DNA of 5,779 nt from a virus (IMGVR_UViG_2690316105_000008), one strand, 5' to 3'. Positions 1 through 5,779 are shown, numbered from the stretch's first letter. Program-made: numbers and translations. The notes: generated by a model not told the origin, from the letters alone.

Positions 1-64
1 TAGTATTAAGACTATCACTTATTTAAGTGATACTGGTTGTCTGGAGATTCAGGGGGCCAGTCTA
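1..64. repeat. Left terminal inverted repeat (64 bp, perfect reverse-complement match to 5716-5779)
   Basis: Base-by-base comparison: reverse complement of 5716-5779 equals 1-64 exactly; the match breaks at position 65 vs 5715. In-frame TAG at 63-65 closes the terminase reading frame. Confidence 0.95.
13..32. repeat. Dyad-symmetric site inside left TIR: TATCACTTA-tt-TAAGTGATA (9-bp arms, 2-bp centre)
   Basis: Positions 13-21 are the reverse complement of 24-32; only the central TT breaks symmetry. Candidate dimeric-protein binding site or hairpin/cruciform; function not determinable from sequence. Confidence 0.7.
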
Positions 65-104
65 GAATGATAAGAACGCCGCCAATAACTCTAAACAAAC
101 ACAA

Positions 105-1565
105 ATGGTGAACGGTACTTTTATCTATTGGTTGAACCTCAACACGCCGGGGAACCTTCGCGGTATCACAACACGCTGTGTTCTGTTAGATGAGGTCAGT
201 AGCTGCGAAATCACTGATGAAGGGAACCCAATCAAACTGGCAGAAGCACGTACCAGTACCTTCGGTAGTGACTCACTGGTGGTTGTATCTTCCACGCCAT
301 TGTATAAAGACGATTTAATCAATGCTGAGTACAACCTCAGTGATAAACGTAGGTACTTTGTTACTCACACATGCGGTCATGAATATACTTTTGAATGGGA
401 ACAAGTAGCGTTTGAATTTAAGCAATTAGAAAATGGTAGATCCATTCCTGATAGTACTACTACTCGTTTGTTATGCCCTCATTGCAATGAGGGAATAGAT
501 GAACATACACGGCATCAGATGGTTGATAATGGTCGATGGATTGCAACTAATCCAGATGGGGAACCGGGTGTAGTAGGGTATCAAATCAGTAGAATGTATT
601 CACCTCTGAATACTATTACTGAAATGGTTTCAAAGTTTGCTGATGCTCTATATAACTTCAATCTTCAAACCTTTTACAATAACGAATTGGGCTTGCCATT
701 CGAAGATGAGTATCAAAAAGAATTAGATATTCTCCAATTAGAATCCCTACGAGAAGATGAATTTAACCTTTATAAAATTCCTGAAAGTACCTTAGCGTTG
801 TGTATTTCAGTTGATCAGCAGGGTGATAGGCTGGAAAGTCTGCTTTTAGGTTTTGATGAAAAGAACATTTATGTACTTGGGCATGAGTTTTTCTACTCCC
901 ACGATTGTACGAAGATTGAAGCCCCAGCTTGGAAGGATTTAGATCAGTTTTGCCGTCAGGATTTCAGTACTGTATCAGGTCGCATAGTACCTACACTGGC
1001 TGTGTTCATTGATGCAGGGAACGGTAACGCTACGGATACTGTGAAAAAATTCACTACACGTTGGAGTAAGTATCATCCGATCAAGGGTAGCAGCTCCACT
1101 ACTGGTGAACTATTCAAGACCAGTACTCAGGCGGGGTACAAACTACAGATCCTAAACGTACATGAACAGAAGAACACGATACGCCGCCTCCTGAACCTGA
1201 TGCTATCCAGTGAGGCAGATAACGCCCCGGTTAAGCTCCGCTTCAGTAGTACCTTACCATCAGATTTCTTTGAGCAACTTTCAGCAGAGGAGTTAAAACC
1301 CGCTGGTGGTAAGTTGGTATGGCGATTAAAGAAAGGTCAAAGAAGAAATGAGGCTTTAGACCTAATCTGTTATGGAATGATCGCCATAGCATATGCCCAA
1401 TCAAAATTAGGTACTCAACCATTCAGGAAGTTACGCGATTATAAAGCACAGGAAACCACTAAATACGAGATAAATAAAGTAGAAGAACCAAAACCAGAAA
1501 CAGTACAAAAACCAAAACGGAATAGACGTACTGGAATGGGATCAAACTGGTTCGGTAAAAGATAA
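105..1565 (+). CDS. terL: Large terminase subunit, lambda gpA family, N-terminally truncated (ATPase Walker A region absent; Walker B, Zn-binding cluster and nuclease domain present)
   Basis: 486-aa ORF with gpA-like motifs as recalled: Walker B-like VLLDE then EITDEGNP (aa 26-37, nt 180-215); Cys/His cluster THTCGHE ... LLCPHCNEG (aa 88-130); nuclease-domain motifs [12 protein letters not shown] (aa 233-244) and [10 protein letters not shown] (aa 298-307); C-terminal RRNEALD (aa 412-418). No P-loop anywhere. The same frame is open and gpA-like (..[11 protein letters not shown]) back to nt 66 with no start codon and no Shine-Dalgarno before ATG 105, so ATG 105 is probably an internal Met of a truncated gene. 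Confidence 0.8.
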
Positions 1566-1568
1566 GGA
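1564..1568 (+). promoter_or_regulatory. Shine-Dalgarno (AAGGA) for CDS 1577-2107
   Basis: AAGGA overlaps the terminase stop codon; 8-nt spacer to ATG 1577. Confidence 0.5.
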
Positions 1569-1576
1569 TATCAAAA

Positions 1577-2107
1577 ATGACACTTCTACCAGAAAAGATC
1601 TACATGGTATCGAATCCCATGGATCTAACGGTATTAGTACCCGCTGCTACTATTCTTGTTATTAGTTTTACATCATCTGGAAAAAGTACCTCATTAGATA
1701 ATTTAAATGGTAGTACTTCAAAAGAATTTACGGTTGTATTAGATATGAGTACAGCACAGGAATTACTATTCTGTACTCAAATATCTAATGGTCAAACCAG
1801 TACTTTTACTTCTGAAGTCATTAATCCATTACTTTATACTTCTGAGTACTCCCAATTAAAACAGATGATCAGTGAAATTGATCAGGTTATAGCTAATAAA
1901 ATTGCAGGCGGTGCTAATTACTCAATAACAATTAATAATAAGACTCTTGTAAGTGAATCATTATCATCGCTTGAATCAATGCGGGAACGCTATGTAAAAC
2001 GTGCTAATGCTCTATTTGTGAAAATGAATGGCGGTACTTTCTCTAATGGCGGTAAACCAATCAAGAGTATTACGGTTTTCAGGCCTAAGCCAGGGAGTAC
2101 ACGCTAA
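1577..2107 (+). CDS. Putative head-tail joining protein: gpW-like C-terminal domain (aa ~97-176) with a ~95-aa Ser/Thr-rich N-terminal extension of unknown function
   Basis: 176-aa ORF with a good RBS, sitting between terminase and portal exactly where lambda has W. C-terminal segment (..[31 protein letters not shown]..) has the length and pattern of gpW as recalled. The N-terminal part has no recognisable similarity but contains a hydrophobic stretch ([15 protein letters not shown]). The stop overlaps the portal start (TAATG). Confidence 0.5.
2093..2097 (+). promoter_or_regulatory. Shine-Dalgarno (GGGAG) for portal CDS
   Basis: GGGAG with 9-nt spacer to ATG 2107. Confidence 0.5.
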
Positions 2108-5407: not shown

Positions 5408-5408
5408 T

Positions 5409-5413
5409 AAGGA
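5409..5413 (+). promoter_or_regulatory. Shine-Dalgarno (AAGGA) for CDS 5421-5765
   Basis: AAGGA with 7-nt spacer to ATG 5421, immediately after the tandem stop codons. Confidence 0.55.
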
Positions 5414-5420
5414 TTAGATA

Positions 5421-5765
5421 ATGAGAGTATTTAAAGATACGCAGTGTGATGCGTTTCTAAATGCTTTCGGTCAGTCTATCCAAACTTGTACGGGAAGTAC
5501 TTTTACAGGAATAGTAGAAGTACTTCCCGTTTCTATTGAGGCGGCAGGTGGATTTATCGAAAGCGTGGAAACATACCTAACAATCAGAAAGGACGATCTA
5601 ATAACCGCAAACGTGGCAATTGGTACAGTACTAATCATTGATGGTGTAAACCAGACAATCTATAACATTGAAGATGATCTATCAGGTATGGTTAATTGCT
5701 ATTTCCGTACTTCTGTAGACTGGCCCCCTGAATCTCCAGACAACCAGTATCACTTAAATAAGTGA
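5421..5765 (+). CDS. Head-tail joining protein, lambda gpFII-like; C-terminal ~16 aa encoded by the right TIR
   Basis: 114-aa ORF with a good RBS. Colinear pattern similarity to lambda gpFII as recalled (DAFLNAFGQSI vs DAAIARADETI; YLTIRKDDL vs LFVRTDEVRQL; IDGVNQTIYNIEDDLSGMVNCYF vs IGEENFWVDRVSPDDGGSCHLWL). Lies downstream of the capsid gene as FII does in lambda-like head modules (FI absent). Confidence 0.55.
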   Translation: MRVFKDTQCDAFLNAFGQSIQTCTGSTFTGIVEVLPVSIEAAGGFIESVETYLTIRKDDLITANVAIGTVLIIDGVNQTIYNIEDDLSGMVNCYFRTSVDWPPESPDNQYHLNK

Positions 5766-5779
5766 TAGTCTTAATACTA
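5716..5779. repeat. Right terminal inverted repeat (partner of 1-64); overlaps the last ~16 codons and stop of the gpFII-like CDS
   Basis: Perfect 64-bp reverse-complement identity with 1-64; the CDS 5421-5765 stop codon TGA (5763-5765) lies inside it. Confidence 0.95.
5748..5767. repeat. Dyad-symmetric site inside right TIR (mirror copy of 13-32); overlaps the stop codon of the gpFII-like CDS
   Basis: Sequence tatcacttaaataagtgata is the reverse complement of 13-32. Confidence 0.7.

Follow-up and report, generated by a model that had tools for sequence, protein, structure and literature searches.

INTRODUCTION

Several systems are known in which a short DNA word occurs far above expectation through selection on the DNA itself. 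Chi (GCTGGTGG), the word read by RecBCD, is asymmetric and orientation dependent, and it is abundant within and between the genes of the host chromosome. The uptake sequences of bacterial chromosomes (uptake signal sequences [USS] in Pasteurellaceae and DNA uptake sequences [DUS] in Neisseria) are nonpalindromic words of 9 to 12 bases that are read by the competence machinery, mark the genome densely as "self," are tolerated in genes, and shape codon and peptide usage there. GATC, a short and dense palindrome, is a host-wide handle for dimeric or symmetric readers, and its enzymes and partners are known (Dam, SeqA, and MutH). SlmA, a dimeric protein conserved in Enterobacterales, binds the consensus GTGAGTACTCAC, which has AGTACT at its center. 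Phage genomes, finally, are known for losing the 4- to 6-bp palindromes that Type II restriction enzymes recognize, a DNA-level and lineage-specific bias. Here we analyze 5,779 nucleotides of viral DNA (IMGVR_UViG_2690316105_000008; the whole stretch, positions 1 to 5,779, is called the window below) in which one such palindrome, AGTACT, is strongly over-represented amid near-total removal of others.

We show that the excess of AGTACT marks the composition of phage double-stranded DNA throughout the genome and is neither a translational codon-pair effect nor a host trait. It belongs to a lineage of temperate siphovirus-type prophages of the Enterobacteriaceae with a low guanine-plus-cytosine (GC) content (36 to 46%), and it arose independently in a group of giant lytic phages that includes GAP32 and RaK2. 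The overall sample consisted of parts of 9 phage genomes and of 10 prophage loci. Expectations are mostly zero-order, supplemented by Markov, junction, and shuffle models.

RESULTS

A sequence-only reading of the window had reported 18 AGTACT sites where about 2 would be expected, together with an apparent excess of GTAC. An exact search bore this out, returning 18 sites, all within 10 bases of the approximate starts first given, whereas 200 dinucleotide-preserving shuffles yielded 2.12 AGTACT on average (standard deviation [SD], 1.41; maximum, 7). The core tetramer GTAC occurred 65 times, against 19.9 in dinucleotide-preserving shuffles (SD, 4.1; maximum, 32), and was the most over-represented of all 256 tetramers in the window (observed/expected ratio [O/E], 3.22); the shuffles rule out chance and base composition as the source of the excess. 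The whole signature lies in the phage-derived core at positions 65 to 5714 (5.65 kb, in a window of 38.9% GC), which holds 65 GTAC (O/E, 3.3), 18 AGTACT (9.8-fold, rank 1 of the 64 palindromic hexamers), no GCGC, and no CTAG, and in which GC-rich 6-bp palindromes have an O/E of 0.21.

Most sites had been described as Ser-Thr encoded by AGT-ACT or as Val-Leu encoded by GTA-CTN, and this holds for 17 of the 18. Ten are Ser-Thr (AGT-ACT), at positions 453 to 458, 966 to 971, and 1122 to 1127 in the large terminase gene (terL); 1712 to 1717 and 1799 to 1804 in a gene for a conserved 176-amino-acid protein (orf176); 2968 to 2973 in the portal gene; 4139 to 4144, 4583 to 4588, and 5162 to 5167 in a protease-capsid fusion gene; and 5496 to 5501 in a head-tail gene. 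Seven are Val-Leu preceded by a codon ending in A (nnA-GTA-CTn): Ala-Val-Leu at 2319 to 2324 (GCA-GTA-CTT, portal) and at 3754 to 3759 and 5116 to 5121 (protease-capsid), Lys-Val-Leu at 3273 to 3278 (portal) and 4354 to 4359 (protease-capsid), Glu-Val-Leu at 5519 to 5524, and Thr-Val-Leu at 5627 to 5632 (both head-tail). The last site, at 1845 to 1850 in orf176, encodes Glu-Tyr-Ser (GAG-TAC-TCC). When synonymous codons were shuffled within each gene, which holds proteins and codon usage fixed, 6.0 ± 2.1 AGTACT (z, 5.8) and 34.2 ± 4.0 GTAC (z, 7.7) were expected, and the observed counts were reached in 0 of 2,000 shuffles. The counts therefore do not become normal once codon usage and amino-acid composition are controlled, and these two factors are ruled out by the synonymous and codon-order shuffles together. 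GTA, AGT, and ACT are preferred codons in the window (GTA for 72 of 127 Val; AGT as the top Ser codon), and CTA encodes 44 of 169 Leu. Highly expressed genes of Escherichia coli seldom use AGT, or CTA for Leu, so that the odd codon usage looks more like a consequence of the word bias than its cause. GTC accounts for just 4 of the 127 Val codons and GAC for just 16 of 114 Asp codons, and depleted trinucleotides in the window and the pooled lineage are GAC/GTC (O/E, 0.56), CTC/GAG (0.69), and CGA/TCG (0.68).

Homologues of the capsid gene are spread across the Enterobacteriaceae, and we pooled 227,554 bases of this lineage (locus L001, which contains the core of the window, and loci L009 to L018; ten relatives in nine genera). 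AGTACT occurs 635 times in the pool against 74 expected (8.6-fold), whereas the runner-up among the 64 palindromic hexamers reaches 1.64-fold. In eight loci of eight further genera, among them Scandinavium, Buttiauxella, Pseudescherichia, Phytobacter, Pluralibacter, and Enterobacter, whose capsid identities range from 82% down to 44% and GC contents of 36 to 46%, the GTAC O/E was about 2 to 4.7 in nearly every 3-kb interval, AGTACT occurred 4 to 16 times per 3 kb (1 expected) in every interval but one, and GCGC was absent from about 22 kb each. In a Desulfovibrio relative with 24% capsid identity, neither the excess of GTAC and AGTACT nor the lack of GCGC was seen.

The excess is not tied to a reading frame. 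Under a junction model, in which each codon junction is predicted from marginal frequencies, the pooled lineage has 684 GTAC in frame GTA|C against 350 expected (O/E, 1.96), 769 in frame GT|AC against 370 (O/E, 2.08), and 306 in frame G|TAC against 138 (O/E, 2.22), and GTAC is the most over-represented junction word in each of the three frames. The O/E in the pool is 2.67 in coding DNA and 2.69 outside open reading frames (ORFs), the latter set including ORFs of less than 70 amino acids, and 2.4 kb of annotated intergenic DNA from the prophage of E. coli ESBLEC_MG48 (MG48) contains 18 GTAC against 7.2 expected (P = 5e-4). The marked codon-pair bias proposed in the sequence-only reading is thus real as a symptom, and as a cause, in the form of a frame-specific effect, it is ruled out by the similar excess in all frames and in noncoding DNA. 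Proteins are affected as well: Ser-Thr ranks 5th of 375 dipeptides by over-use in the lineage (1.61-fold, and 1.49-fold in the second enriched group described below, against 1.03 and 0.99 in control phages), and Val-Leu is used 1.36-fold (0.81 in control phages).

Host DNA, inserted elements, and cargo genes served as internal controls. One relative, more intact than the window's parent, is a 35.6-kb prophage in ybhA of MG48 (L009 8556 to 41552 and L010 27405 to 30201; 75% identical over terL). In sliding windows over its junction with the chromosome, the GTAC O/E is 0.3 to 0.9 on the host side, with GCGC about 2-fold over-represented, and mostly 1.6 to 4 on the prophage side, with no GCGC. 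Flanking E. coli DNA has GTAC at 0.73-fold, AGTACT at 0.3-fold (1 site in the 17 kb examined), and GCGC at 2.15-fold. The IS21-like and IS2 insertion sequences (ISs) in the Shigella prophage contain no AGTACT and 10 and 9 GCGC, respectively, while the three phage segments that adjoin them contain 17, 18, and 30 AGTACT and no GCGC; a lambdoid prophage of the same E. coli genome has AGTACT at 0.2-fold. Host flanks, IS insertions, and the neighboring lambdoid prophage rule out a host-wide bias, and with it the host codon-pair preference and the host-wide enrichment considered at the outset. Within the MG48 prophage, a block of three genes on the opposite strand (L009 15381 to 18748), including an OLD-family nuclease (P2 Old/GajA-like), is as AT-rich as the rest and has a GTAC O/E of 0.17 to 0.59. 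This block looks like recently acquired defense cargo, and since it is equally AT-rich yet lacks the signature, the signature is a property of phage DNA of long residence and does not simply go along with low GC content.

The bases around GTAC define the preferred word. A precedes GTAC (position −1) in 54% of cases and T follows it (position +1) in 53%; position −2 is enriched in C and poor in G, which is mirrored at +2, and nothing is seen farther out. These preferences make up a soft word with dyad symmetry, (not G)-A-GTAC-T-(not C), or hAGTACTd. A 5-mer Markov model gives an O/E of 1.05 for AGTACT in the pooled lineage, i.e., the two flanks act independently. GGTACC (0 copies) and CGTACG (2 copies) fall far short of the about 30 expected for each in the pool, and TGTACA is at expectation there (76 against 74) and rare in the Shigella prophage. 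Spacing of GTAC is Poisson-like, with no 3-base or 10-base phasing in the spacing analysis. Site density is 1.48 ± 0.54 per 500 bp over 22 kb, without a peak at terS, the terminase genes, or the cos region in this profile. Such even density rules out a local packaging signal, and, with a palindrome that has no orientation, it lends no support to the packaging or uptake signal suggested by the first reading. In aligned genes of two relatives with 63 and 54 GTAC sites, just 21 positions are shared, so that density is maintained, not particular sites, and individual sites turn over. Boxes for known regulators do not account for the word: full SlmA boxes (GTGAGTACTCAC) number 0, GAGTACTC occurs 1 to 2 times per prophage among 53 to 65 AGTACT sites, and LexA boxes (CTGT-N8-ACAG) occur 0 to 2 times per prophage.

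The background against which AGTACT stands out is extreme palindrome avoidance. Enrichment of a restriction-type palindrome had been called unusual for phage DNA, and it is all the more so in a lineage otherwise devoid of GCGC (0 against about 320 expected in the pool, and 0 against 8 in the window) and of nearly all GC-rich 6-bp palindromes. Thirteen palindromic hexamers are at 0 in the pooled lineage, including CTGCAG, GAGCTC, GGTACC, AGCGCT, GGCGCC, and CCCGGG, and 15 more have 1 to 7 copies against about 30 expected, with GATC at an O/E of 1.06. Many of the avoided GC-rich hexamers are sites of known enterobacterial Type II enzymes, and avoidance this extreme suggests unmodified DNA and a broad host range. 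Some palindromes vary between sublineages: the Shigella, L012, and L014 types have almost no CTAG, which is normal in L017, and TGCA is near zero in L017 and MG48 and normal in other members. MG48 has patches with and without CTAG, in keeping with a mosaic origin in which its head genes resemble those of L017 and its tail genes those of L014 and L015.

To find the signature elsewhere, viral contigs were scanned for clusters of three AGTACT sites. The scan recovered lineage members (L087 and L043) and pieces of two giant-phage genomes, Cronobacter phage GAP32, whose identity was confirmed, and a second contig that we take to be Klebsiella phage RaK2. Both share the window's profile. AGTACT is at 6.8-fold in GAP32 (50 kb) and 6.7-fold in RaK2 (30 kb), rank 1 in each; GCGC is at 0 in both; and GC-rich 6-bp palindromes have O/E values of 0.19 and 0.39, respectively. 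GAP32 lacks 20 other palindromic hexamers as well. An excess of GTAC is seen in every reading frame and in noncoding DNA of both phages, and the reverse holds for T4. By comparison, the E. coli flanks, lambda, T4, T5, and DCP80 have AGTACT at 0.2- to 0.4-fold, with GCGC present and GC-rich 6-bp palindromes at 0.47 to 1.01, and FelixO1, phi92, and N4 have AGTACT at 0- to 1.0-fold, GCGC at 0.03- to 0.94-fold, and GC-rich 6-bp palindromes at 0.01 to 0.11. In all three enriched groups the AGNNCT family follows the same order, with AGTACT at 6.7- to 8.6-fold, AGTGCT/AGCACT at 1.4- to 2.0-fold, and AGCGCT at 0, and their nonpalindromic tetramer profiles correlate mutually with r values of 0.62 to 0.76 (0.38 to 0.63 between the prophage lineage and other phages). 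The only gene shared between the prophage lineage and GAP32/RaK2 in the sequence analyzed is a lysozyme gene.

Two further IMG/VR contigs carry the full signature, L077 (AGTACT 10-fold, GTAC 2.4) and L037 (AGTACT 6-fold, GTAC 2.2), both without GCGC. L077 encodes a T4-type polynucleotide kinase and an RNA ligase and is thus a large myovirus. In L037, which comes from a contig of 60.7 kb, there are no recognizable domains; it has no match among isolated phages and may represent a third independent group. Many other matches to AGTACT clusters (e.g., L083, L051, and L098) were rejected as repeat-like sequences of highly skewed composition that lack a genome-wide signature. Among the comparators, DCP80, FelixO1, and N4 show strong avoidance of a flavor other than the window's: GATC occurs 0 times in 30 kb of DCP80 (L143), 0 times in 20 kb of FelixO1 (L146), and once in 20 kb of N4 (L148), and FelixO1 has 1 GC-rich palindromic hexamer site against 74 expected.

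The lineage also carries a known oriented word. One Chi site (GCTGGTGG) lies in terL of the window (positions 1302 to 1309), and the lineage has 11 in all, every one on the strand that encodes the structural proteins and 0 on the other, with 1.2 expected per strand (about 9-fold). This oriented enrichment shows that selection acts on host-directed DNA words in the lineage.

Judged by its sequence, the window is a contig of a decayed, IS-ridden prophage that is broken at two copies of IS2; this follows from its inverted IS2 ends and from loci with IS2 at both junctions. The parent prophage is common in Shigella and E. coli, and the window is its head-gene fragment (terL, portal, and protease-capsid). 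Copies in Shigella, E. coli, and Enterobacter number in the hundreds, with 359 index blocks matched by the portal gene alone. Positions 1 to 64 (minus strand) are the terminal 64 bases of IS2, the end upstream of the transposase genes, which points away from the phage DNA and lies outside the signature. They are the exact reverse complement of positions 5716 to 5779 (plus strand), the terminal 64 bases of a second, inverted copy, and both ends match IS2-annotated DNA in phage records at 97 to 100%. The core (65 to 5714) is identical to positions 7959 to 13608 of L001 and L003, assembly chromosomes in which IS2 interrupts terL; in L001 this IS2 directly precedes the terL fragment seen in the window, and in L004 another IS2 occupies the site of the window's right-hand copy. 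One homologue cluster is labeled Shigella sonnei by its source, and HE616528.1 is, we assume, a Shigella sonnei chromosome.

All genes of the core lie on the plus strand in a lambda-type head module order (gpA terminase, portal, S78 protease, and HK97-fold capsid) that is supported by Pfam matches above curated cutoffs and conserved in 10 relatives. The large terminase subunit gene, of the lambda gpA type (65 to 1565; 18 GTAC, 3 AGTACT among them), is 5' truncated by IS2; its frame is open from the junction at base 65 (listed ORF, 105 to 1565), the N-terminal third is gone, and its Pfam matches are GpA_ATPase (only profile positions 109 to 247) and GpA_nuclease. In the interval between terminase and portal, orf176 (1577 to 2107; 9 GTAC, 3 AGTACT among them) matched no Pfam family and is kept in all relatives at 42 to 92% identity. 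The portal protein of the lambda family (2107 to 3615; 12 GTAC, 3 AGTACT among them) matches Phage_portal_2 (E value, 3.7e-59). It is followed by a fusion of a prohead protease (S78) and an HK97-type major capsid protein (3563 to 5407; Peptidase_S78 and Phage_capsid; 20 GTAC, 6 AGTACT), whose listed ORF begins, in a different frame, within the last 53 bases of the portal gene (3563 to 3615), and the true start may lie farther downstream than 3563. A small head-tail protein gene (5421 to 5714; 6 GTAC, 3 AGTACT among them) is 3' truncated by the second IS2. It has a weak Phage_attach match under the curated cutoff, and L001 has an intact form of 107 amino acids. The last ORF (5421 to 5765) continues into IS2, so that its final codons are not phage sequence. 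Beyond the window, L001 (14050 to 16701) and its homologues encode, after the head-completion genes and before the gene for the major tail protein, a protein of 883 amino acids that contains the intramolecular chaperone domain Peptidase_S74; this is an unusual position for a fiber-like protein.

The MG48 prophage has a large serine integrase, and no repressor, replication, or methyltransferase genes were recognizable in it. Its early region consists mostly of orphan genes that are not conserved among relatives, and it also has a T5orf172/GIY-YIG gene (13320 to 13700) and a SegE-type GIY-YIG gene (40291 to 40746). Beside the attachment site it brings along a pyridoxal-phosphatase (HAD) gene, which may stand in for the host's interrupted ybhA.

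A gene that might read or modify the word was sought in these elements. No methyltransferase was found in the MG48 annotation (35.6 kb), in Pfam scans, or in a heuristic catalytic-motif screen of 1,145 lineage ORF segments, host genomes being outside this screen. A conserved accessory gene that tracks the signature was rejected, as accessory genes vary between members; the T5orf172/GIY-YIG, OLD nuclease, and SegE-type GIY-YIG genes each occur only sporadically, and neither GAP32 nor RaK2 has a counterpart of any of them. Three compositional candidates, a preference for G/C-flanked TA, evasion of H-NS through fewer A/T runs, and a reduction of −10-like hexamers, were set aside as not specific to the enriched groups.

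DISCUSSION

What the exclusions leave is a persistent force with two-fold symmetry that bears on the duplex DNA of phages, leaves host DNA untouched, and is at work in two groups of phages with differing replication machinery. The reading that we tentatively favor, as quite possible though short of probable, is positive selection for a dense, dyad-symmetric site in duplex DNA that is read by a homodimeric factor. The word is symmetric, its flanks are base specific, it has arisen convergently, and it alters proteins; the reader and the benefit are what we infer. Selection on the phage DNA would keep the density of AGTACT high while single positions turn over, and a two-fold symmetric reader, such as a homodimeric protein or enzyme, would act on the duplex sites; it would come from the Enterobacterales host or be encoded by an as yet unrecognized gene of the phage. 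The outcome would be phage DNA with a dense mark (about 1 site per 350 bp) that is nearly lacking in host DNA, with a word pressure strong enough to shift codon choice (GTA, AGT, and ACT) and dipeptides (Ser-Thr and Val-Leu).

Several points weigh against this reading. Composition alone cannot tell selection from a context-dependent bias of mutation or repair. The flank symmetry of GTAC is approximate, not exact, and the independence of the two flanks agrees with a dimeric reader and likewise with a process that works strand by strand on GTACT. Conservation of sites from one relative to another exceeds the average only moderately (33% against 21.5%; rank 21 of 159). The sampled parts of the prophage lineage encode no conserved DNA-binding candidate, and, lysozyme aside, nothing plausible as a reader is common to this lineage and the giant phages; the sequence covered was 50 to 61 kb of GAP32, 30 kb of RaK2, and 20 to 30 kb of each comparator phage, parts only of these genomes. 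In a more far-reaching version, which we hold to be doubtful, AGTACT would be a palindromic "self" word of certain unmodified AT-rich Enterobacterales phages whose density is read by a conserved host or phage factor that tells phage DNA from host DNA, in a role like that of Chi or the uptake sequences. The complete absence of GCGC, a tetramer about 2-fold over-represented in the host, would be the complementary half, e.g., by keeping phage DNA safe from a nuclease directed against host DNA, and two unrelated phage groups would have reached the same two-word code independently.

Other forces could raise a DNA word without a sequence-specific reader or a benefit to the phage. A context-dependent bias of mutation or repair during lytic growth that creates or protects GTAC would explain the uniform, frame- and coding-independent enrichment, the turnover of sites, the mildly raised single-transition variants AGTGCT/AGCACT (1.4- to 2.0-fold), and, as slow amelioration predicts, the lack of the signature in recent cargo and IS elements. 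However, the prophage lineage shows no polymerase or repair genes and the published descriptions of giant phages include T4 replisome homologues, which makes a shared phage-specific mutator unlikely, and a host-driven bias should mark the host chromosome, lambda, T5, and the neighboring lambdoid prophage, all of which show the opposite (0.2 to 0.76). Moreover, no one-step neighbor of GTAC is strongly depleted, and protein sequence is affected, so that we regard a mutational origin as rather unlikely. Mechanics of the DNA is a somewhat weaker candidate. The TA step within GTAC has been described as exceptionally deformable (PMC13284261), and dense hinges could ease bending, wrapping, or capture by gyrase, nucleoid proteins, or the packaging machinery, for which sites that are uniform, unphased, independent of frame and coding, and effective through density alone would suffice. 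Yet among the NTAN words only GTAC is raised in all three groups, with CTAC/GTAG not raised in GAP32 and RaK2; the strong preference for A and T flanks and the near-lack of GGTACC and CGTACG suggest that individual bases are read; and T4, T5, FelixO1, and phi92, of similar GC content, have GTAC at just 0.5 to 0.9. The mapped E. coli gyrase motif gives no support either, being a degenerate 130-bp pattern, not a hexamer (PMC6379681).

An epigenetic mark, with AGTACT or GTAC as the target of a phage- or host-encoded methyltransferase or other modifier that serves protection or self-recognition, would suit the form of the site, a soft 4- to 6-bp palindrome of the Type II kind (ScaI/RsaI class), and giant phages are reported to encode several methyltransferases (PMC3622015, PMC5259590), including RaK2 gp194. 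The sequence-only reading had named a methylation or recognition motif, and its second half may still hold; the first is improbable, with no methyltransferase encoded in the sampled elements, hosts spanning at least nine genera, E. coli DNA that itself avoids AGTACT (0.3-fold in the DNA examined), and carriers of modification systems that normally avoid their own site and do not accumulate it. We consider it very unlikely that the excess is a by-product of restriction-site purging, in which AT-biased, transition-rich mutation would funnel sequence into GTAC, the double-transition product of GCGC. GCGC is indeed absent wherever AGTACT is enriched, and the AGNNCT order is the same in three groups, but a quasi-stationary mutation-selection model in which GCGC and 24 palindromes are lethal brings GTAC only to 0.93 to 0.99 and AGTACT to 1.02. 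A single transition suffices to destroy GCGC, yet the one-step products are at 1.4- to 2.0-fold against 7- to 9-fold for AGTACT, and N4 (GCGC at 0.03), FelixO1, and phi92 purge as strongly or more and have AGTACT at 0- to 1.0-fold. Least credible of all, and close to negligible, is translational codon-pair bias or host oligonucleotide style: the Ser-Thr and Val-Leu contexts of 17 of 18 sites and the preference for GTA, AGT, and ACT speak for it, but the excess is similar in three frames and intergenic DNA, and neither host DNA nor other phages that infect these hosts show it.

Our full-text literature searches, which included the RaK2 and CBB genome papers, found no published description of AGTACT or GTAC enrichment in phages. 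While phage genomes are known for losing restriction palindromes, here one is driven up 7- to 10-fold, and this exception arose separately in temperate siphoviruses of one lineage and in giant lytic myoviruses whose hosts belong to the same order. A reader, should there be one, would constitute a new DNA-protein recognition system that extends along whole phage genomes, as an anti-defense, self-marking, or DNA-handling device. The signature is also of practical use, as it marks prophage boundaries to within a few hundred bases, tells old core genes from recently acquired cargo, and finds members of the class in metagenomes, and it illustrates that word pressure at the DNA level can reshape codon choice and dipeptide content.

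Set beside the known systems, AGTACT shares with Chi that a short word is found far above expectation, within and between genes, through DNA-level selection, but it is palindromic, avoided by the host (0.3-fold), and without a known reader. Like USS and DUS, it is dense, genome-wide, and tolerated in genes, where it shapes codon and peptide usage; unlike them, it is a 4- to 6-base palindrome in phage DNA with no uptake process. With GATC it has in common the form of a short, dense palindrome that could serve symmetric readers throughout a genome, but it is phage specific and has no identified enzyme. SlmA sites contain the same hexamer and have a dimeric reader, yet the full 12-mer is absent from the lineage, where G at −2 is depleted and not preferred. 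Compared to restriction-site avoidance, the word class is the same and the sign is reversed for one word, which is raised 8.6-fold. Elsewhere the word is avoided: it is at 0.2- to 0.5-fold in E. coli, lambda, T4, T5, and FelixO1, and a halovirus paper lists it among absent palindromes (PMC7911831). Genome-wide selected DNA words are a kind of system already known; new here is one that is palindromic, specific to phage DNA, and avoided by the host.

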